This document shows positions 1,894-53,464 of a stretch of 64,000 nt of DNA, in pieces (the stretch's first letter is position 1; each line of letters begins with the position of its first letter). The stretch is taken from positions 1 through 64,000 of IMG/VR virus record IMGVR_UViG_3300033997_000074. One strand, 5' to 3'. The notes beneath the pieces were generated by a model that saw only the letters and a program-made list of their open reading frames with translations, made no database searches and had not been told where the DNA came from. The stretch is from a virus. Position numbers and translations under genes: made by a program.

Positions 1894-2481
1894 TTATGGG
1901 GTAGGAGTTGGGATGGGGGTTGTATCAGGGACGCCGAAGGTTTCATTGTAAACTTCAACTCCACCCTCATTTTCAACTATGCCGTTGATAATCGCAGACT
2001 CGAAATAATCAATCTGCTCTTCACTAACAACTTGATAAGTGAAAGTGATGTCTAATGTGTGGTAATCAACCCACCTTGTCTCTCTTTTGACAGGACTATA
2101 AGCAATGTTTCCTTTACGAATAAACCCAAGCTTTTCCTGCCGGAAAACATCTTGAATCAAAGGACTGTACAGCTTGTTAGAGAGAGTGTGGGCCATGTCA
2201 CCACTATCTCCGCCTACAAAGAGAATCCTGAACTCTACTTCGTATGCGGAAGAATAAGAAACTTTAAAGTCGGTGCTAGTGAGAGTTGAGGAAGAACCTC
2301 TACCTTGACTGTAAACACCGAGAACAGAGATAACGACATAACTGTCATCCGGCTCTGTACCGTTCAAATGAGAAAAGATAATAGGAGCTGTATCTTCGTT
2401 ATATGTGGGATAATAATCTTGCAATGAAGCCCATACACCCCTACGAACAGCTTCTTTTATTGTTGTATAAACTCCTGCCAT
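1894..2481 (-). CDS. Hypothetical virion (neck/tail) protein
   Basis: 195-aa ORF packed between the sheath-like and gp10-like genes in the structural operon. Confidence 0.5.
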   Translation of the reverse strand: MAGVYTTIKEAVRRGVWASLQDYYPTYNEDTAPIIFSHLNGTEPDDSYVVISVLGVYSQGRGSSSTLTSTDFKVSYSSAYEVEFRILFVGGDSGDMAHTLSNKLYSPLIQDVFRQEKLGFIRKGNIAYSPVKRETRWVDYHTLDITFTYQVVSEEQIDYFESAIINGIVENEGGVEVYNETFGVPDTTPIPTPTP

Positions 2482-2484
2482 TTA

Positions 2485-2949
2485 TCACCCCTTCTCAATT
2501 TTGAACTTAACCGAGTTTTTCATTGTCTCTGTTTCAATCAGAGGATCATTAAACCCTTTTAGTTCTACGGTAAGGGCTGCGTTAGGTGGAGAAGACCACT
2601 GTTCAATAATTTCTTTTGTATCTTGTACTAAGAAAGTGCCAAGTTTTGCATATTCTTGCTGCACGTTTGAAAGATTAAGAATTATTCGTCGAGCTGCTTC
2701 TTGATAATCTTTCCTATACGGAGTGCTTCTTACAACACCAGTCAAACCCTGAGCACCAGACATAAACGGGCGAGCGGGGGGTCCAAGACCAGCATCTTGA
2801 ATTCGGGCAATGTAGGCAACAGGAAGATTTTCATTTTCAGGGCCGTAACGATCTTCTTCAAAGAAACCGACACTAAGCTGAATAGAATCTGCTTGTCGGA
2901 ATTTCTTTTTCATTACTTCCCAAACTTTCTTGTCAACCTTCAGACTCAT
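2485..2949 (-). CDS. HK97 gp10-like neck/tail-completion protein
   Basis: 154 aa. The motif GLGPPARPFM is typical of the gp10 family, and the position in the neck module fits. Confidence 0.55.
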   Translation of the reverse strand: MSLKVDKKVWEVMKKKFRQADSIQLSVGFFEEDRYGPENENLPVAYIARIQDAGLGPPARPFMSGAQGLTGVVRSTPYRKDYQEAARRIILNLSNVQQEYAKLGTFLVQDTKEIIEQWSSPPNAALTVELKGFNDPLIETETMKNSVKFKIEKG

Positions 2950-3311
2950 GGCGTTGGCCCTATCCTAGCTGCCCATGCCTCGTGGTGGTCAAGAACTCCC
3001 ATATCCCAGCTCTGAACTTTCATTATCTGGTAACGATAACCCTTCCAAATAAATTCATCGGCATCGTATCCTTGTGCCCCCTCTTGCTTTGTTCTTACAA
3101 GGTCAGTTGTCCAAAGCCTGTACCACTCACGAGTGCGATCAGATTCAGGCATCATTTGAACTTCAGAAGGCTTCAAAGGCTGGATATTTGCACGAATTGG
3201 CACTTCAACGATTGGCCCCTCTACCCACACGCCACGGACATAAGAACCCGCTTCTTGTCGGTAGATGGTAAGTGGGACTGTTCTAGTCAGGAGAAATCTT
3301 GGAATAGACAT
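2946..3311 (-). CDS. Head-closure / head-tail adaptor protein (positional call)
   Basis: 121-aa ORF whose start and stop overlap its neighbours in the neck module. Confidence 0.4.
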   Translation of the reverse strand: MSIPRFLLTRTVPLTIYRQEAGSYVRGVWVEGPIVEVPIRANIQPLKPSEVQMMPESDRTREWYRLWTTDLVRTKQEGAQGYDADEFIWKGYRYQIMKVQSWDMGVLDHHEAWAARIGPTP

Positions 3312-3322
3312 TCACTTCTCCT

Positions 3323-3736
3323 TCAGAAAGTAGAACCGTAGGCTTTGCAAGTGTTACAACCACAAGATTCTTCGTGGTCACAAACTTGAATGTTAAGAAG
3401 CTTAGAGCAACTATCTTTACTTCCATACCAAGGGTACAATCCATCAGGCATAAACATGCCTGCACCCTTCATCAGATTTTCAAGAACTTTAAAGTAGCTT
3501 GTTGATACAGAGTTCCACACCTCTATTGAACCAGTGCGTTCACGAGTGCTCCAAGCAGACAATTGTGCATAAGCACTTGCTGCTGCAAACCTTGCTGCTT
3601 TATAAACATCCCCCTTAGAGAAATCTAAAAGCTTTTGAATTTCTTCGTCGGTTAGAAGCATGTAGAATGGAGACGTTTCCGTATCTCCGATCAAAATTCG
3701 AATTAAACTGATCTTTTCTTCGTCAGTCATGGGCAA
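3323..3736 (-). CDS. Head-tail connector (gp6-like) protein
   Basis: 137 aa with N-terminus MPMTDEEKISLIRILIGDTE...LLTDEEIQKLLD, typical of connector/DNA-packaging adaptor proteins. It lies after the capsid gene. Confidence 0.5.
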   Translation of the reverse strand: MPMTDEEKISLIRILIGDTETSPFYMLLTDEEIQKLLDFSKGDVYKAARFAAASAYAQLSAWSTRERTGSIEVWNSVSTSYFKVLENLMKGAGMFMPDGLYPWYGSKDSCSKLLNIQVCDHEESCGCNTCKAYGSTF

Positions 3737-3984: not shown

Positions 3985-4008
3985 AGGAGGCTATATTTCA
4001 AGCCTCCT
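3985..4008 (-). terminator. Rho-independent terminator after the major capsid gene
   Basis: AGGAGGCT/AGCCTCCT 8-bp stem with an 8-nt loop, followed on the minus strand by ATATTT. Confidence 0.55.
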
Positions 4009-4036
4009 TATTGTCTAACTATAAATCCTAAGAGGA

Positions 4037-5098
4037 TTAAACCAGCGACAGACGAACGATAGCACCCGGATTCAGCAGAGCGTTCAGGAAGTTTTGCTCA
4101 GTCATAATCTCGATGATGTCATCTTTCTCGTTCATGTACTCGAACCAGTAGCTACCCTGAGCACGGCGGTTGATGGTGCCGAAACGGTTAGCAGGAGCGA
4201 AGTAGGTCTTGAACATATCACGAACACCAACAGGCATCATGTAGGCATCACCTTCCGGTACGAACGGAACGAAAGTGCCAGCAGCGTTTTCATAACCGGC
4301 AGCACCTGCGTTGATGAAGGTGATACCGAACAGGTCAACATACTCAAAGCGAGCATCGGTAGCCAGCGACTGCGGCTGACCCAGCAGAACAGCAAGGCTT
4401 TGTGCGCCAGCGTCAGACTTCATTGCATCGGTAACATAGGGGTTCAGCAGCAGTGCGTTGAAGAAGCTGTCCGAAGCCAGAACAACGAAGCGGCGGATGG
4501 TGCCAGCTTGACCACCAGTCAGGCCAGCACGAACAGCTTTCTTGGCATCAGCGAAGTCGCCACGCGGGTCAACCGAAGCTGCCAGATTAACACCAATCTC
4601 TTCACGAGTAATACCAAACTCGGTGTAGTAGTTGGTCGATACAGTGCCGTTCGGAGCATAGACAGTACCGGCAGTGATAAGCTGCATACGAGCGGCTTCA
4701 AGGGTCAGACCATGAGCTTCACGCAGGTCAAACATCTTGTCAGCACGGACGTTAGCAACGCTTTCCAGCTCAGCGGCTTCAGCCATAGAGTTGGCAGAAA
4801 CAATACCATCGATGTCATTCGGGGTGATAGCGTCATCTGCCGGGAAGTGCGGAATCTTGAGCAGCAGCGAGTCGCGTTGACGACCAGCGATAGTTTGGTT
4901 ACGCTCATCCCAGTTACGGTCTTCCAACAGAGTGGAGCCACGCTTGGTGCGGGTGATTTCAACAGTCTTCTGACTGGAGAAGGTCGGAGTGAACAGACCA
5001 AGTGCGTTGGTGATACCTACAGTGTTCGGGATTTGAATCAGGCTGTCGGTACGGTCAACTACCTTAGTGCGGTCATTCGGGTTAATTACGAGAGGCAT
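4037..5098 (-). CDS. Major capsid protein, lambda gpE-like
   Basis: 353 aa. The order protease-decoration-capsid matches lambda C/Nu3-D-E. The C-terminal pattern FVPEGDAYMMP...IMTEQNFLNALLNPGAIVRLSL parallels the lambda gpE end as recalled. Confidence 0.85.
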   Translation of the reverse strand: MPLVINPNDRTKVVDRTDSLIQIPNTVGITNALGLFTPTFSSQKTVEITRTKRGSTLLEDRNWDERNQTIAGRQRDSLLLKIPHFPADDAITPNDIDGIVSANSMAEAAELESVANVRADKMFDLREAHGLTLEAARMQLITAGTVYAPNGTVSTNYYTEFGITREEIGVNLAASVDPRGDFADAKKAVRAGLTGGQAGTIRRFVVLASDSFFNALLLNPYVTDAMKSDAGAQSLAVLLGQPQSLATDARFEYVDLFGITFINAGAAGYENAAGTFVPFVPEGDAYMMPVGVRDMFKTYFAPANRFGTINRRAQGSYWFEYMNEKDDIIEIMTEQNFLNALLNPGAIVRLSLV

Positions 5099-5145
5099 AT
5101 TTTAACTTTCCTTTATTTAATTAATAACGTGGCAAAATATGCCGA

Positions 5146-5604
5146 TTACTTGGTTTCCAGAACCACGATACCTTGCTTTTCCAGCACTTCTTTCAGAGAA
5201 GCAAACTGAGCATCGGTAAGCGGGGTGCCGAGGGTGTCAGCGAACTGGCGAATGTAGTATTCTTTCAGTTGCAGGCCACCAGAATGACCAACAAAACCAA
5301 CAGCGTTATACTGACCAGCAACAATGGCACGCGGAACGAACGAGGGGTTGAAGCTGTAATGGTCGCCGTAAATAACAGCAAACTCATTGGTTTCTGCGAT
5401 TTGAGCAGCGGCGCTCAGAACTGCGTAAGCGCCTTCAGGGTCAGTACCCTTGGCACGGTAAACAACAGTGCCGATTTCAACAGCAGCGCCACCAGCCGGG
5501 GGAGTGACGTTTACACATTTACGGCCATAACCAACACTCGGATCAATTTCGTGAACAACGAGGTCAGACAGGCGCTTGGAGTAAGGCATGGTTACGAAAG
5601 GCAT
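5146..5604 (-). CDS. Head decoration protein (gpD-like, positional)
   Basis: 152-aa ORF immediately upstream of the capsid gene, as in lambda-like head modules. Confidence 0.5.
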   Translation of the reverse strand: MPFVTMPYSKRLSDLVVHEIDPSVGYGRKCVNVTPPAGGAAVEIGTVVYRAKGTDPEGAYAVLSAAAQIAETNEFAVIYGDHYSFNPSFVPRAIVAGQYNAVGFVGHSGGLQLKEYYIRQFADTLGTPLTDAQFASLKEVLEKQGIVVLETK

Positions 5605-46034: not shown

Positions 46035-46165
46035 CACACCATCCCCTACAATTTCTTCTATCATGCTCTGCATCCTCGATAGAAATTTACAATTATGCTT
46101 TCTGAGATGTTGATGTAAAATATGCCCATCGACAACAGAAAGCCGAAGAGGCTAGGAGAGAAGAT

Positions 46166-46762
46166 ATGAAGGATTTTGAAGCAGAAATTAAGCACCTACA
46201 AGATAGCATTTCGCCACTGATTGCTGAGCGGGATAAACTTAATAGGAAAATAATGTCTATTAACGATAAAATCAAGAAGGTTAGACAAGAGCAGGAAACC
46301 TGTCAAATGGCTTCGGGAATGACAAAAGAAGAGAAGATTGAGTATTTTCTTTTTGAAGATGGTTTGGTAGACGGCGAGCGGTATAAAGCACGTCAAAAGT
46401 TTTGGAGTTCTATGAGGCTTCGCCAGTCGGGTTATTTCCCAGAAACGGAACAAATCCAACTTGAGCTTATGCTATACAAAGGTATCGGTGATAATTTAGA
46501 ACAGACCGTTACTGCTCTGGAAGAGGTATTACCTTTCATAAAGCCGCTCAAGGGAGTGAAGCACCTTAAGATTTTTGAACACACCTTGTCAGAATATGGT
46601 AGCTACAGGGTTGAGATTTCTGAAACCTCCTTTGATGTGGTTGTATGGACCTACGGTCGTAAGAGCACCGTAAAATCTTTTGACAATCTTCGTTCTATGG
46701 TTCAGTATGTCCAACAACACCACTACTACGAAAGCTCGGTAGACGAGGATAACGAAGAATGA
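46166..46762 (+). CDS. Hypothetical 198-aa protein (N-terminal coiled coil)
   Basis: ORF track; SD AGGAGAGAAG upstream. Confidence 0.55.
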   Translation: MKDFEAEIKHLQDSISPLIAERDKLNRKIMSINDKIKKVRQEQETCQMASGMTKEEKIEYFLFEDGLVDGERYKARQKFWSSMRLRQSGYFPETEQIQLELMLYKGIGDNLEQTVTALEEVLPFIKPLKGVKHLKIFEHTLSEYGSYRVEISETSFDVVVWTYGRKSTVKSFDNLRSMVQYVQQHHYYESSVDEDNEE

Positions 46763-48500: not shown

Positions 48501-48693
48501 AGCCTTCTTGATTACGTTGATTGTTGTTGGCTATTTTGTGGTGTTCTTTTTCTTGCTGTCGCAATCACTGTATGACAACAAAATTGCAATGGTTGGCTTT
48601 GTGTTCTGGTGTGCAATGGGTGTATTCTTCCTGCTCTATGCTGGAATGGAAGATTCTAAACAGGGTCCATGCATTGAATGGCAAACACATTAA
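48484..48693 (+). CDS. Two-TM membrane protein
   Basis: ORF track; FLITLIVVGYFVVFFFLL and MVGFVFWCAMGVFFLLYAG. Confidence 0.5.
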   Translation: MKAMFEAFLITLIVVGYFVVFFFLLSQSLYDNKIAMVGFVFWCAMGVFFLLYAGMEDSKQGPCIEWQTH

Positions 48694-48725
48694 CAGAGAA
48701 AGCCGTGTAGGCTAGGAGACAACGT

Positions 48726-49787
48726 ATGAAACACATCAAGACCTTGAAAGTCCGTGTCCGAGACAAGCATCAACCGCTGCTGAACCAAATGGCGCGTTCA
48801 GTCAACTTTGTCTGGAACTACGTGAACGAACTTAGTCACCGCTCTATTAAAGAGCGTGGTGTGTTTTTGTCTGCCTACGATATGCATCCCTACACAAAAG
48901 GGGCTCACAAAGAGCTGGGACTGCACAGTCACACGGTTCAGAAAGTGTGTGCTGAGTACGCCACCCGTCGTAAGCAGTTCAAGAAGGCGCGGCTAAACTG
49001 GCGTAAAACCGGAGGTGCTCGCCGCTCGTTAGGATGGGTTCCAATCAATACCGGCATGGCGAAGTGGAAAAACGGGCAGGTGTACTACAACGGACACTAC
49101 TTCAAGGTCTGGGACAGCTACGGGCTTTCCAACTACAAGTTTCGCTCCGCGTCGTTTAATGAGGACGCCCGTGGTCGCTGGTATTTCAATGTCGCGGTAG
49201 AAGTTGAGGCGGACATGCCAGTCGGTCAAGACAAGATCGGTATCGACCTTGGTCTGAAAGATACCGCCACCTGCTCTGACGGAACCAAGCTAGAGGCTGG
49301 TCGGTTCTACCGCGATATGGAATCGAATCTGGCTGTTGCACAACGCGCAAGAAAGAAAAAACGTGTCAGAAACATTCACGCCAAGATAGCTAATCGTCGA
49401 AAAGACGCATTGCACAAGTTCAGCCGTCAACTGGTAAACCGTGCGGGTGAAATCTATGTTGGTAATGTTAGTAGTAGCAAACTCGTTAAAACCAAGATGG
49501 CCAAGTCAGTGTTGGACGCTGGCTGGGCTATGCTGAAAACAATGCTGGAATACAAATGCGATAGCGCAGGCATTGTTTTTAAGGAAGTTAACGAGGCATA
49601 CACCACCCAGACCTGCTCGTGCTGCGGTTGTATTTCCGGCAGCAGCCCAAAGGGTAGAACAGGTTTGCGAATAAGAGAGTGGACTTGCAGTGAGTGTGGT
49701 GTCACTCACGACCGTGATGTAAACGCGGCCAAGAACATTCTTGCGGTCGGGCATGGCCGTCCTGTAGAGGGAATCCCCGTCCTTTAG
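48726..49787 (+). CDS. tnpB: TnpB (IS605 OrfB-family RuvC-like nuclease), catalytic residues apparently intact
   Basis: GIDLGLKD (Asp), VNEAYTTQTCSCCG (Glu plus CxxC), CSECGVTHDRDVNAAKNI (CxxC plus Asp). 353 aa. Confidence 0.85.
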   Translation: MKHIKTLKVRVRDKHQPLLNQMARSVNFVWNYVNELSHRSIKERGVFLSAYDMHPYTKGAHKELGLHSHTVQKVCAEYATRRKQFKKARLNWRKTGGARRSLGWVPINTGMAKWKNGQVYYNGHYFKVWDSYGLSNYKFRSASFNEDARGRWYFNVAVEVEADMPVGQDKIGIDLGLKDTATCSDGTKLEAGRFYRDMESNLAVAQRARKKKRVRNIHAKIANRRKDALHKFSRQLVNRAGEIYVGNVSSSKLVKTKMAKSVLDAGWAMLKTMLEYKCDSAGIVFKEVNEAYTTQTCSCCGCISGSSPKGRTGLRIREWTCSECGVTHDRDVNAAKNILAVGHGRPVEGIPVL

Positions 49788-49803
49788 GGCGTGGAGGATG
49801 TCA
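49650..49803 (+). ncRNA. Candidate omega/reRNA scaffold overlapping the tnpB 3' end
   Basis: Inferred by analogy with characterised TnpB systems, plus the terminal hairpin across the stop codon. The extent has not been determined. Confidence 0.3.
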
Positions 49804-49804
49804 T

Positions 49805-49951
49805 ATGAGCGATTTCCTTGAACACATCTTTCAGGGGATGATTTCTGAAGCTGAGGCTGAGAGGATTGCTGAGAAGGCTAATCAAGAAGGGTATGATGTG
49901 GGGTATCAGGAGGGTTATTATCAAGCGCAAGTTGATGAAGTTGAATATTGA
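49805..49951 (+). CDS. Small 48-aa protein directly flanking the TnpB element
   Basis: Manual translation: GGAGGATGTCAT ATG, MSDFLEHIFQGMISEAEAERIAEKANQEGYDVGYQEGYYQAQVDEVEY. Confidence 0.4.
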   Translation: MSDFLEHIFQGMISEAEAERIAEKANQEGYDVGYQEGYYQAQVDEVEY

Positions 49952-49966
49952 TATGGGGAGAGGGTT

Positions 49967-50116
49967 GTGAATCGTGAAACAAGCTTCACTGTCACCCGCT
50001 ACGGCGTAGAGGTTGACCTGTCTGAAGAGGGGAAGACAGGTTGTCCTCGTTGCCAAAAGAAACACGGTCGTGACAAGAACAATGACAACCTAATGGTTAG
50101 GAGGGGTGATGGTTAG
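49967..50116 (+). pseudogene. Diverged duplicate of the primase N-terminal zinc-finger segment (49 codons, GTG start)
   Basis: VNRETSFTVTRYGVEVDLSEEGKTGCPRCQKKHGRDKNNDNLMV compares with the primase MVFKITRYSQEIDLSYEHKTRCPRCASKRGDNSGNNLHCY. It ends where the endonuclease ORF begins. Confidence 0.6.
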
Positions 50117-50759
50117 ATTAGTTCAAGGTTGGGGCATAAACGATGAAGGGAGTTCTAGTATTCGCTTGTCAGACGGTTCAGTAATTAAGTGTCCTTTGTA
50201 TAGGTCTTGGTCTAGGATGCTAGAGCGTTGCTTTAGTCGAAACTGGAAAGAACGATACAAAACTTATGAGGAATCTTTGTGTTGCGAAGATTGGCGTTAC
50301 TTCTCTTCCTTTAAACTGTGGGCACAAGCTCAGCCGTGGCAAGGAAATGATCTTGACAAAGATTTGCTCGTGTTTGGAAACAAAGAGTACTCTCCAGAAA
50401 CTTGTATCTTTATTCCGCCAATGATAAATAAAGCTCTTCGAGTTGTTCGGACGGGAAAGAATTTACCGGGAGTATCTTTCCAATCAAAAAGCTGGTCTAT
50501 GGTTAACGGTCTGAAGAAGCCTTGGATGGCTAAGTGCTACTCCCTCAGAGATGGGAATACTGGAACGTACCTCGGGAACTACTCAACGGAAAAGGAAGCA
50601 CATAATGCTTGGCGTTCTGCTAAGGCAGAGGCTCTGAGGGAGTGGGCTGAACTCTGGAAATATGAACCTTCAATGGTTGGCAGCTTCAGTGAAAAAGCTT
50701 ATAATGCGCTTATCCAAAGGGCATCTCTGTTTGATGATTACAGTGTTGACTTGGTTTAG
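50106..50759 (+). CDS. HNH/AP2-like homing endonuclease (subfamily shared with 40761 and 57945)
   Basis: YRSWSRMLERCF...CCEDWRYFSSFKLW...DLDKDLLVFGNKEYSPETCIFIPPMIN, and AP2-like GVSFQSKSW...YLGNYSTEKEAHNAWRSAK. Confidence 0.7.
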   Translation: MMVRLVQGWGINDEGSSSIRLSDGSVIKCPLYRSWSRMLERCFSRNWKERYKTYEESLCCEDWRYFSSFKLWAQAQPWQGNDLDKDLLVFGNKEYSPETCIFIPPMINKALRVVRTGKNLPGVSFQSKSWSMVNGLKKPWMAKCYSLRDGNTGTYLGNYSTEKEAHNAWRSAKAEALREWAELWKYEPSMVGSFSEKAYNALIQRASLFDDYSVDLV

Positions 50760-50767
50760 GGGGTAGC

Positions 50768-52534
50768 GTGGTTTTTAAGATTACTAGGTATAGTCAGGAG
50801 ATTGATCTTTCTTACGAGCATAAAACCAGATGTCCCAGATGTGCATCTAAGAGGGGCGACAACTCTGGAAATAACCTCCATTGCTATGGCCTGGATGAAA
50901 ACAATAAGCACAAGGGTGCATTTTGTTTCTCTTGTGAGTATGTTATTCCAAGCCAACAATGGCTAGAAGATAATGGTGAAATTGAAGAAGAGGAGTATGA
51001 TCTAGTGGGAGCTGATTTTAACGATGACATCCACAAGAAACTGAAAGAGACGACGGGCGTAGATAGTAAAAACTATCGCAGCGTTCGTACAGATGTGAGC
51101 AAACCGTTTGGCGTTCGTTATGCCTATTCTCAGGAAGATGGTAGCGTTGTTGAGACTTACTACCCTTGCACAAAGAATGGTGAGCTTTCGGGTTACAAAG
51201 TTCGTCACCATGTAAAACGCTTTGAGGCAATTGGTGAAACAGGCAAAGATTGTGAGATGTTTGGGCAGTTTAAGTTCAAGACAAACAGTCATACTGTCGT
51301 TATTACAGAAGGAGAGCACGACTGTCTGGCGGCATTCCAGATGCTGTCTGATGCACAGAAAAACAAACAATTTGACCCTGTGGCTGTGGTCAGTACAACA
51401 ATTGGTGGAGCAGGCGCCTACAAGCAAATTAAAAACAACTACGACTTCTTTAATCAGTTTAAGAAGATCATTGTTTGTATGGACGCGGATGCAGCAGGGG
51501 ACAAGGCGACAGAAAGTGTCGTCGATGTTCTCCCTAAGGGGCGTGTATTTATCTTGAAGATGCGTTACAAAGACCCAAACTTTTACCTAGAAACAAACAA
51601 AGCGACTGAGTTCATCTCAGATTTTTGGTCAGCTAAGCCTTACACACCTGCTGGAGTTAAAAGTGCGGCTGAGGGTATTGATGAGATTCCAGATGAGTTG
51701 CGTAAACCACGGATTACCCTGCCGGAATATATGCACGTTATGCAGGACATGATGGGCGGGGGTATTATTCAGGGTCGCATAGCTAACGTGATCGCAGATA
51801 CCTCGTGCGGCAAATCGACACACGTTAATCGCATGGTATATCACTGGATTTTTAATAGCCCAGTAACCCCGACCATTGTAAGTCTTGAGGCCACCGCTGC
51901 ACAGTATATGTTGGAAATGTTGTCGATACATCTTGAGAAAAATCTTTTGTGGCGTATGACAAGTGAGCAGATTATTGATTTTCTTGGCACCGAGGAAGGA
52001 CAACGGGTTAAGAACGAACTGGCTTATAAGGAGACAGGTGAACCAAGGTTCTTTATCATCGACGAGCGCGCAGGGAGTATTAAAGACATGGAAGCAGAAA
52101 TGGAGATGCTTTTCCGTAAACACGGCAGTAGGCTCTTTGTTATTGACGTTCTTACAGACTTGCTACGCGGAAGCAGCGAACAGTTTTCCGAGGATCACAT
52201 GAATTTTCAGCGCAATATGGCAAAGAACGGGGTAACTACCGTGAACGTCCTGCATACACGAAAGCCACCACAAAATGCTGAAGGTAAACCACGTAAAGTT
52301 AGTGAATTTGATGCACTTGGGACGGGCAGCTTCGTGCAGTCGGCTGCCTACAACATTGTGCTAAATCGAGATAAGCTTTCGGAATCTGAGATTGACAAAA
52401 ACACTACAGAAGTGGATTTGCCAAAATGTCGAGGCGGAAAAACGGGCTCAGCAGGTAAGTGGTTCTATGAGTTTGAGAAAAGTAAGTGCCACGACCTTGA
52501 TGATTGGCTTCGTAATAACCCACAAGATTTTTAA
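50768..52534 (+). CDS. Bifunctional primase-helicase (T7 gp4-like)
   Basis: CPRC...CFSC zinc finger; TOPRIM VVITEGEHDCLAAFQ and IVCMDADAAGDKA; Walker A ADTSCGKST; Walker B LFVIDVLTD. Confidence 0.9.
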   Translation: MVFKITRYSQEIDLSYEHKTRCPRCASKRGDNSGNNLHCYGLDENNKHKGAFCFSCEYVIPSQQWLEDNGEIEEEEYDLVGADFNDDIHKKLKETTGVDSKNYRSVRTDVSKPFGVRYAYSQEDGSVVETYYPCTKNGELSGYKVRHHVKRFEAIGETGKDCEMFGQFKFKTNSHTVVITEGEHDCLAAFQMLSDAQKNKQFDPVAVVSTTIGGAGAYKQIKNNYDFFNQFKKIIVCMDADAAGDKATESVVDVLPKGRVFILKMRYKDPNFYLETNKATEFISDFWSAKPYTPAGVKSAAEGIDEIPDELRKPRITLPEYMHVMQDMMGGGIIQGRIANVIADTSCGKSTHVNRMVYHWIFNSPVTPTIVSLEATAAQYMLEMLSIHLEKNLLWRMTSEQIIDFLGTEEGQRVKNELAYKETGEPRFFIIDERAGSIKDMEAEMEMLFRKHGSRLFVIDVLTDLLRGSSEQFSEDHMNFQRNMAKNGVTTVNVLHTRKPPQNAEGKPRKVSEFDALGTGSFVQSAAYNIVLNRDKLSESEIDKNTTEVDLPKCRGGKTGSAGKWFYEFEKSKCHDLDDWLRNNPQDF

Positions 52535-52543
52535 GGAGGCTTT

Positions 52544-53464
52544 TTGAATATTGTTTATAAACTAACAAACCTAGACCGCGAAAGCGGTCGAAGGTTTTAT
52601 GTAGGCTCCAAAACCGAGTGCTTTATAGAAAAGATAAACGGTGTAGACCGAATTGTGTCAACAAAGACAGGTCTTCCTTATTATGGAAGCAGCACATGTC
52701 CACTGATGAAAGCTGATATGGCGGAGGGCCACAGATTTTCCGCCGAGATTTTGGAAGAAGTTACAAATAAGAAAAATCTTTTGTCGGCAGAAGATGCTTG
52801 GATTGTAGAGTTGAATGCAGTTGAGTCAGAGGATTACTACAACATCGCCTATGCCAGAGTGGGTGGTCACATGGTGGACCAGACCGCTGCATATAATATG
52901 TACGGTGAGACTATTGTGGATTATGGCAAGGCTGTATCCTCGCTAAACAAAAGAAACAACACGGCAGCTAAGTATGGCTACAGCAACATGGGTTTGTTTT
53001 GTCTTTTCTTGAAGGAACAGTTCGACTCTGGAAAAGGTTCCGCTGAGATAGCTTCTGATCTTGGTTGGGAGAGACATGCTCCCGCGAGGTATATAAAACC
53101 TTATGATATGGATAAGTGCAAAAGAGAGTGGGAGTCTCAGGAAGAAGGGGTCAGGAAATCTATTAGGCAGCTCATAGCTGAGGGTGTTTCCGCAAAGAAG
53201 ATTGCGGAGCTGAAAGGGCTTGAAATCCCCACGGTTTGCTTGTATATTGGAGACTACTCAAAGGTTTATAGGAAATCTTACCTAGTGGCTCAGCGTCGAG
53301 GTGAGACAAAAGAAGAGCTTGAAGTCAAGATTACCAAGATGGTCGTTGATGAAGAGAAAGGTTTCAACGAAGTGTCAAGGGAGCTTATGATAAATGAAGC
53401 AAGTGTGAAGAGATACTTTCTCCGTTGTATACGGAGGAATCTAAAAGATGTAGAACTTATCTAG
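52544..53464 (+). CDS. GIY-YIG homing endonuclease, free-standing between primase-helicase and polymerase
   Basis: IVYKLTNLDRESGRRFYVGSK...EDAWIVELNAV...YYNIA, with C-terminal HTH-like repeats. TTG start. Confidence 0.7.
   Translation: MNIVYKLTNLDRESGRRFYVGSKTECFIEKINGVDRIVSTKTGLPYYGSSTCPLMKADMAEGHRFSAEILEEVTNKKNLLSAEDAWIVELNAVESEDYYNIAYARVGGHMVDQTAAYNMYGETIVDYGKAVSSLNKRNNTAAKYGYSNMGLFCLFLKEQFDSGKGSAEIASDLGWERHAPARYIKPYDMDKCKREWESQEEGVRKSIRQLIAEGVSAKKIAELKGLEIPTVCLYIGDYSKVYRKSYLVAQRRGETKEELEVKITKMVVDEEKGFNEVSRELMINEASVKRYFLRCIRRNLKDVELI

Follow-up and report, generated by a model that had tools for sequence, protein, structure and literature searches.

TnpB nucleases of the IS200/IS605 insertion sequences (IS) (ISDra2, IS608, and GstIS; Karvelis 2021, PMC8612924; Meers 2023, PMC10055086) work with an omega RNA whose scaffold overlaps the 3' end of tnpB; the guide is drawn from the flank of the right end, the target is a transposon-associated motif (TAM) followed by that flank at an unoccupied site, and the inserted element parts TAM from target. 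Homing of TnpB at vacated donor sites is established (PMC10055086), TnpB-dependent and TnpA-independent spread of complete IS605 among plasmid copies has been shown experimentally (PMC11870625), and a 2026 review names co-infecting phages as a theoretical target of "transposon non-restorative homing" (PMC13565253). No paper describing a phage case of TnpB homing was found in full-text literature searches. Phage tnpB genes are usually just annotated as transposases. Here, we describe a tnpB gene and its predicted omega RNA in 64,000 nucleotides (nt) of virus DNA (IMG/VR record IMGVR_UViG_3300033997_000074, positions 1 to 64,000; called the window below) and propose, with a probability of roughly 60%, that they form a TnpA-independent cassette that homes into tnpB-less ("naive") sibling phages.

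The window is part of a phage genome of at least 88 kb (an identical TnpB protein is on record on an 88-kb contig), and its gene content (major capsid protein E, S49 protease, Mu-type portal, T7-like primase-helicase, and family A polymerase) is that of a tailed phage. The 20-nt sequence that follows the right end of the element was scanned in IMG/VR and JGI metagenomes, which yielded carriers and ten distinct tnpB-less contigs (compared contigs and loci bear L numbers). The junction in these ten naive contigs reads ...TATGAT followed by ATGAGCGATTTCC..., i.e., ...GGCTCCTATGAT followed by ATGAGCGATTTCC (GAC in one contig), continuing as ATGAGCGATTTCCTTGAACA. A protein-based search, which is not biased to a perfect target, added six further alleles; TGAT or TGAC was kept in all of them, and some had 1 to 3 distal mismatches (one in L113). 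The allele of L014 has TGAC. Two contigs, L110 (IMGVR_UViG_3300029199_000039) and L112, read CTCAGTGATTTCC, with mismatches at the TAM-proximal end (TATGAC followed by CTCAGTGATTTCCTTGAGTAC; 4 changes in the first six target bases, Met to Leu); these could be resistance alleles or simply variants. L110 and carrier L011 come from one metagenome (3300029199), and carrier and perfect-target naive contigs co-occur in another (3300018405). An earlier note on this DNA had held that a lack of empty sites in related phages would speak against a mobile TnpB here; at least ten tnpB-less contigs were found at the locus.

Compared with these alleles, the window has lost phage DNA. The naive downstream protein starts M.I.ILKGFRQYSPEDLRSYAYRGLITCGSYD ahead of MSDFLEH..., and the ATG at 49805 of the window corresponds to codon 33 of that protein. 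The absent DNA amounts to 143 nt (against the L018 type) to at least 172 nt (against the L014/L017 types) and comprises the TAM and the first 32 codons of the downstream gene and, in the L014/L017 type, also the last ~26 codons of the upstream gene, which is longer by that much in these relatives; in the L018 type, the upstream stop is the same as that of the window. The locus thus has the form of a replacement that shortened the downstream gene, not of the precise intergenic insertion that the earlier note had seen, and the empty site which it had proposed to rebuild (48680-48693 fused to 49804-49830) corresponds to no natural allele. TGAT or TGAC precedes the target in naive genomes and TCAT precedes the same sequence in the carrier; with the TAM identified from bacterial copies (see below), the recognition site would be whole in the former and destroyed in the latter. 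As the TAM of the clade stands directly 5' of the right-flank sequence in naive alleles, the original insertion was probably a canonical one between TGAT and ATGAGCG. The sequence ACATTAAC of the left flank, which had been offered as a candidate TAM, is rejected: naive alleles place the putative TAM, TGAT, immediately ahead of the target, within the DNA that was deleted here, and bacterial left-end junctions concur.

The identical 353-amino-acid (aa) protein occurs on four contigs from at least three data sets, always at one site, in 3 TnpB+ haplotypes; with at least ten naive contigs on the other side, this is a presence/absence polymorphism at a single locus. Across 48670-49824 (1,155 nt), not a single difference separates the window, L011, and L012. 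The flanks of the haplotypes differ by 4 to 12%; between L011 and the window, there are 40 differences in 319 nt of adjacent flank (12 in the 139 nt on the left, 28 in the 137 nt on the right). Further left, these two contigs are 4.1% different, a rate at which ~47 differences would be expected in the 1,155-nt tract (P(0) ~e^-47). Right of the cassette, the window differs from naive L017 at 1/85 positions and from carrier L011 at 8/85, and L011 differs from naive L020 and L023 at 3/85. Left of the cassette, L011 differs at 13/204 positions from naive L017 and at 18/204 from the window. The TnpB+ contigs are not monophyletic on either flank. Since carriers are not closest relatives on either side and the cassette is identical, it was placed very recently on at least two to three backgrounds. 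A cassette far more uniform than its flanks, with a history incongruent on both, is what was looked for as the mark of a homing endonuclease gene (HEG).

Exchange points lie within ~20 to 50 nt of heterology, and on the right, polymorphism first appears at 49825, at a distance of 21 nt from where the TAM would be. ISDra2-type TnpB reportedly cuts 15 to 21 nt from its TAM; position 49825 would be at the expected cut distance, which is suggestive only, the 20-mer having been fixed by the search. DNA homology between the carriers (window against L011) ends with the 48-aa gene, right of 49965, and the primase-helicases beyond it are 28% identical, which places the cassette at a boundary between exchangeable modules.

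At the left, foreign DNA sets in 1 to 3 nt upstream of the tnpB ATG, and homology to the bacterial IS begins at the ATG itself (Table 1; the left limit of the foreign block was set by L018 and bacterial copies, the right limit by 9 phage copies and ~80 other copies). The earlier note had started the block at 48694. Positions 48694-48722 are phage DNA, however: they are found base for base in the naive contig L018/L028, and a paralogous motif recurs at 46139-46159, upstream of the gene at 46166 (0 expected by chance), so that the foreign DNA can start only just before the ATG. This stretch contains a small hairpin, AGCC (48701-04) and GGCT (48710-13), and a Shine-Dalgarno (SD) sequence, AGGAG (48714-18), and tnpB is probably expressed from it as from a phage ribosome-binding region. 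No similarity was found between 48694-48722 and the sequence upstream of tnpB in homologous elements, bacterial copies included. Positions 48694-48725 had also been considered as a short IS left end, which is ruled out by their presence in naive L018, the paralogue at 46139-59, and the lack of a left-end hairpin. The full intergenic repeat reads CAGA(G)AAAGCC-N5-GGCTAGGAGA-N6-7-ATG at 46137-46165 and 48697-48725 (hairpin plus SD, with a different loop in each); it possibly serves the phage as a signal for translation or RNA processing, and one of its two copies now lies upstream of tnpB.

No left-end hairpin was found at the window element and no left end abuts a TAM, so the element is not the intact IS first supposed. 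In agreement with the earlier note, no Y1 TnpA was detected in the 64-kb window of the at least 88-kb genome (tblastn, family TnpA query, E<=0.1; the same query detects tnpA beside 19 bacterial copies), nor was a second TnpB, TnpA, or right-end copy found in the window. Judged against naive alleles and bacterial elements, the left end, the Y1 transposase, the TAM, and 143 to at least 172 nt of phage DNA appear to be gone from this locus. Promoter and terminator scans gave counts not above those in shuffled sequence.

Table 1. Features of the tnpB locus (window coordinates)
Feature	Coordinates	Strand	Remarks
Upstream phage gene	48484..48693	+	69 aa, hydrophobic
Native phage translation-initiation region, probably now driving tnpB	48694..48722	+	29 nt; no IS left-end DNA
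Foreign block	48723..49804	+	1,082 bp, 51.1% G+C; 1-3 junction bases, tnpB, and IS605-family right end
tnpB	48726..49787	+	353 aa; D174, G246, E290, D331; C4 zinc ribbon C297, C300, C321, C324
Predicted omega-RNA scaffold	49675..49804 (about)	+	Overlaps tnpB 3' end
Terminal hairpin, equivalent of IS608 IP_R	49775..49794	+	CCCCGTCC (49775-82)-TTTA-GGGCGTGG (49787-94); GAAT at 49771-74 just 5'
Conserved right-end tail	49793..49804	+	GGAGGATGTCA+T; from alignment of copies
Predicted guide / self-copy of target	49805..49824	+	ATGAGCGATTTCCTTGAACA; preceded by TCAT in the window
Downstream phage gene, truncated	49805..49951	+	48 aa; ~80 aa in naive relatives

Conservation on the 3' side extends up to ...GGAATCCCCGyCCTTTAGGGCGGGGAGGATGTCA, after which nine phage and 59 bacterial copies become unrelated, with the boundary at 49803/49804 in the window. 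In IS608, GAAT stands 5' of the hairpin foot and the cleavage tetranucleotide TCAA lies 10 nt 3' of the hairpin. The window element has GAAT, a hairpin, and a 10-nt tail, yet the tail ends in TCAT where ~80 copies have TCAA, and the hairpin contains one mismatch. As described in the earlier note, the hairpin, with its TTTA loop, straddles the tnpB stop (TAG, 49785-87), and GGAGGA (49793-98) of the element end, 6 nt ahead of the ATG at 49805, doubles as the SD of the truncated downstream gene. The substitutions at 49792 and 49804 are unique or nearly so among ~85 copies, and both fall in TnpA recognition elements; the G-to-T change at 49792 also loosens the stem that overlaps the SD of the downstream gene.

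The predicted omega-RNA scaffold consists of a long-range helix (GAGAGUG/CAUUCUU), stems at 49737-54 and 49755-64, and the terminal stem-loop. Across a 64-sequence alignment, the 25 pairs of the five-helix scaffold are 97.7% paired, 16 of them with compensatory changes; in a control in which partners were slid by 1 to 3 columns, pairing fell to 39 to 59%. Minimum free energy folding of the window sequence alone gives the same helices. A full-length match to the Rfam family HgcC (RF00062) was obtained at 49694-49817 with 31.7 bits, below the gathering score of 50; this family was previously connected with RNAs that come from the 3' end of IS1341-type tnpB (PMC4615843). The target sequence occurs in a single copy in the window.

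The nearest copies of the protein (89 to 91% aa identity) are in Stutzerimonas, Thiopseudomonas, and Marinobacter, and most of the 248 members of the 90% cluster come from the same group. The bacterial element is ~1,589 bp long, with a Y1 tnpA divergent from tnpB and a left end with a hairpin. In the closest bacterial copies, the 4 nt directly 5' of the left end are TGAC (5 loci) or TGAT (1 locus); TTAT or TTAC is found at this junction in other subclades. The tetranucleotide ahead of the left-end hairpin changes in step with them (CAAG/TGAC, CAAA/TGAT, AAAA/TTAT, and AAAG/TTAC), as expected from the pairing rule between cleavage site and guide that was reportedly worked out for IS608 by Barabas in 2008 and Guynet in 2009. 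Because the TnpA cleavage site is also the TnpB TAM in this family, the TAM of the closest clade is probably TGAY. The cassette itself was probably derived from an IS608-like IS200/IS605 element of Pseudomonadales.

The protein matched Pfam PF01385 (OrfB_IS605, 56 bits) and PF07282 (Cas12f1-like_TNB, 91 bits) and NCBIfam guided_TnpB (262 bits; cut-off, 100 bits), with ISDra2 TnpB (8BF8/8EXA) as its closest PDB relative, and the open reading frame (ORF) named as TnpB by the earlier note is borne out. The motifs listed there, GIDLG (D174), NEAYTTQ (E290), and HDRDVN (D331), are present, as are the two CxxC pairs (297/300 and 321/324); the description of the motifs as a standard RuvC triad needs amendment at the glutamate. 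Upon alignment with ISDra2, D174 and D331 fall on the catalytic Asp residues, the position of E278 is occupied by G246, and E290, an alternative Glu 44 residues downstream of G246, is invariant in all relatives checked. In large TnpB clades, the canonical RuvC-II Glu has likewise become Gly, with an alternative Glu elsewhere ("approximately 45" residues downstream in the paper on these clades, among them RIIr-5; PMC10691335), and this architecture is cleavage competent in Fanzor and TvTnpB (PMC10530073). The catalytic D-E-D triad thus appears to be present, but only in the rearranged RuvC-II form, and the window protein looks like a clear TnpB of that kind, as assigned by residue alignment; it differs from the rearranged clades in its RuvC-III motif, DRDVN, which is that of the "typical" clade. 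The dN/dS ratio between phage tnpB and its nearest bacterial copies is 0.15.

The foreign block is richer in G+C than the window (51.1% against 43.0%), as the hand counts in the earlier note had suggested, but the flanks are less extreme than was reported there (41 to 45% over 5 kb, with 38% only in a few hundred bases on the left). Segments of equal length reach the block value in 1.3% of cases, all of them in the major capsid gene, and G+C content was set aside as proof of foreign origin, being weak alone when the major capsid gene is equally G+C rich. That gene (4037-5098, minus strand; 52% G+C over the 4000-5400 region) also has 353 codons, a coincidence.

On the homing reading, an IS inserted canonically between TGAT and ATGAGCG within a small phage gene, and a later deletion would have taken the left end, tnpA, the TAM, and ~143 nt of phage DNA, joining the tnpB start codon to the phage ribosome-binding region; the GGAGGA of the right end would have been retained as the SD of the truncated downstream gene and the cassette would now be unable to transpose. 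The tnpB transcript would be processed to an omega RNA with the guide ATGAGCGATTTCCTTG..., and in a co-infected cell the ribonucleoprotein would recognize TGAY plus target (TGAT-ATGAGCGATTTCCTTGAAC) in a naive sibling and cut it. Repair of the break from the TnpB+ genome via the conserved flanks would then replace the naive 143 to at least 172 nt by the cassette. The outcome would be "non-restorative" homing, an RNA-guided gene drive, to which the carrier should be immune, since the TAM is gone and TCAT, not TGAY, stands before its own copy of the target. What the sequences show is the layout of the locus, naive alleles with both TAM and target, one identical cassette on several backgrounds, and a conserved RNA structure with conserved catalytic residues; that the cassette is expressed, its RNA processed, the target cleaved, and conversion unidirectional is what we infer. 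A solo TnpB guided by adjacent phage sequence against siblings had been proposed in the earlier note; the naive siblings, the match of TAM and guide, and the identical cassette on diverged backgrounds agree with that proposal, and the geometry then assumed does not.

Several points count against homing. The perfect 20-nt match in the first ten naive contigs was built into the search pattern, of which only the TAM and the protein-based set are independent. The last base of the right end is T49804 (GTCAT) where all ~80 other copies have A (GTCAA), and T49792, which is G in nearly all relatives, breaks one C-G pair of the terminal stem (C-U mismatch); either might weaken guide use or displace it. 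With all phage copies identical, the intact ORF carries no information on selection within phages. We know of no test of nuclease activity in the clade of this TnpB, and activity enters the reading by inference. Ordinary mosaic recombination among phages might likewise carry one recent allele onto several backgrounds, whether or not the module is under positive selection. The two atypical right-end bases, together with a basis that is purely comparative, call for caution.

If the locus were an inert recent relic, an IS605-family insertion crippled by deletion and shuffled passively by mosaic recombination without any cleavage by TnpB, then a position at a mosaic junction would be expected (the primases of the window and L011 are 28% identical despite the common cassette module), the two atypical substitutions in right end and scaffold would be natural, and the intact ORF would say little, zero substitutions meaning no time for decay. 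Such a relic is the main rival but a rather unlikely explanation: in at least two independent backgrounds, both junctions lie within ~20 to 50 nt of heterology, which is the pattern of break-induced co-conversion and not of random crossovers; after the deletion, tnpB was joined precisely to a phage SD, with its ORF intact and the scaffold complete; and TAM and target are kept in naive siblings of the same samples. TnpB and its omega RNA might instead serve as a weapon without copying, handicapping or destroying competing naive phages while the cassette rises through selection on its carriers. The target is present in co-occurring relatives, and nuclease-mediated interference between co-infecting phages has a precedent in the PhiPA3 intron endonuclease (PMC11620839), but the presence of the cassette in several flank haplotypes requires transfer into other backgrounds, beyond clonal success, and we regard this explanation as improbable, although its mechanism and homing are not mutually exclusive.

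That the locus is an ordinary nonautonomous tnpB-only IS200/IS605 element, sitting between two genes and mobilizable by TnpA in trans, is very improbable. Such elements are common (PMC10691335), and the right end follows the canonical layout (GAAT, hairpin, and 10-nt tail) as far as its last base. The left side, however, has no left-end hairpin or sequence, with foreign DNA only from 1 to 3 nt before the ATG; the TAM does not adjoin the element; the right-end cleavage tetranucleotide is TCAT, not TCAA; and all four carriers have the element at one site, with no second copy in the window.

Set beside the systems described so far, homing from this locus would share with IS200/IS605 homing the protein family, the scaffold overlapping the 3' end of tnpB, the source of the guide, the kind of target, and a carrier made immune by the parting of TAM from target, and would differ in three ways: the cassette has neither TnpA nor left end, and so no excision to compensate; the "vacant site" would be the allele of a co-infecting virus rather than a vacated donor on a sister chromosome; and the unoccupied allele has an extra 143 to at least 172 nt that would be replaced by the cassette. 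With the IS605 plasmid drive (PMC11870625, PMC13565253), it would have in common TnpA-independent spread into naive copies by RNA-guided cleavage and recombinational repair, while the window element is pared to nuclease and RNA and its evidence is population genomic, not experimental. The free-standing HEGs of phage T4 (Seg/Mob) show the same presence/absence at one locus, a target in conserved coding sequence beside the gene, short co-conversion tracts, and a site at a module boundary, and the window has other candidate HEGs nearby; for the window, we propose target recognition by an RNA guide and a 4-nt TAM instead of a protein, and self-immunity by TAM deletion instead of target polymorphism. 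The right-end layout is that of IS608 of Helicobacter pylori, and the left-end tetranucleotide of bacterial relatives co-varies with the 4 nt 5' of the hairpin; unlike in IS608, tnpA of the closest relatives is divergent from tnpB, as in IS605, the TAM is probably TGAY and not TTAC, and the window copy has no left side.

Nuclease and RNA are ordinary here; what is new is the stripped-down, phage-wired, transposase-free set-up with natural target, immune, and possibly resistant alleles. Whether virulent phages at large carry natural RNA-guided gene drives, i.e., TnpB and omega RNA shed of the transposase, wired to phage signals, and spreading by cutting the allele of co-infecting relatives, we consider an even bet. 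If they do, the cassette would be a living intermediate between a transposon accessory nuclease and a free-standing, host-independent RNA-guided homing or defense nuclease, and L110 and L112 would be resistance alleles in an ongoing cycle of drive and escape. The natural role of TnpB is demonstrated only in assisting TnpA-driven transposons and, lately, in plasmids, with virus-to-virus spread a stated possibility (PMC13565253); this locus would offer a compact, directly testable natural case with defined guide and TAM and with susceptible, putatively resistant, and immune alleles. It would show a route by which a transposon nuclease becomes independent of transposition, a step assumed in models of the origin of Cas12 and exapted TnpB, and would add RNA-guided nucleases to those that mark recombination boundaries in phage mosaics. 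For practical use, it points to a 353-aa rearranged-RuvC enzyme with a probable 4-nt TAM.

Among GenBank phages, no near-identical genome was found, and only tnpB of Bacillus phage Dartukuta matches (77% nt identity). Klebsiella phages FBKp34 and KP13-16 have a primase of 68% aa identity in common with the window, but not the flanking small genes. To the right of the cassette lies a 49-aa ORF (49967-50116) with homology to the zinc-finger part at the N terminus of this phage's own primase-helicase (53% over 34 aa); it also resembles the N terminus of the FBKp34 primase. Next comes a 217-aa ORF (50106-50759) without a Pfam match, which in FBKp34 has a homologue immediately ahead of the primase, and after it the complete primase (50768-52534). 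The arrangement over 49967-52534 suggests a homing-type insertion with duplication of the 5' end of the primase gene. Between primase-helicase and DNA polymerase, a 306-aa ORF (52544-53464) gave a SegE-type GIY-YIG match of 22.2 bits, below the cut-off of 25, and is a candidate free-standing homing endonuclease.

Other phage-borne relatives of the element differ in their state of preservation. The viral contig L153 (IMGVR_UViG_3300029199_000035, ~1912-2910), from the same sample as L011, contains an internally deleted relative with 91% identity over its 3' 244 nt; this copy retains a left-end hairpin, ends in the canonical GTCAA, and lies next to a different flank. In the IMG/VR contigs L123 and L124 (~1976-3452), tnpB is 74% identical, with homology from ~22 nt before the ATG, and runs straight into a common downstream gene without the omega-RNA terminal stem and the GTCAA tail; these may be decayed or exapted phage TnpB genes. 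Among Ralstonia phage Hyacinthe (L005) and the phages Raharianne (L009), Heva (L006), and Gamede (L010), members of one species have differing tnpB genes (59% against 55% identity to the query) at one locus; one relative, Gamede, retains only the 3' half of tnpB, with the right end intact, and the annotated tnpA adjacent to tnpB in Hyacinthe is 300 nt long against a 429-nt upstream ORF in Dimitile. Salmonella phage LPSTLL (L007) has a tnpB element at 2300-3700 whose naive counterpart is found in Shigella phage DS8 (L172) and many relatives. The LPSTLL insertion has no recognizable left-end hairpin and is bracketed by a 9- to 10-nt direct repeat, AGAATTAAT, which is unexpected for IS200/IS605 transposition; at the naive site of DS8, TGAT stands just ahead of the repeat.

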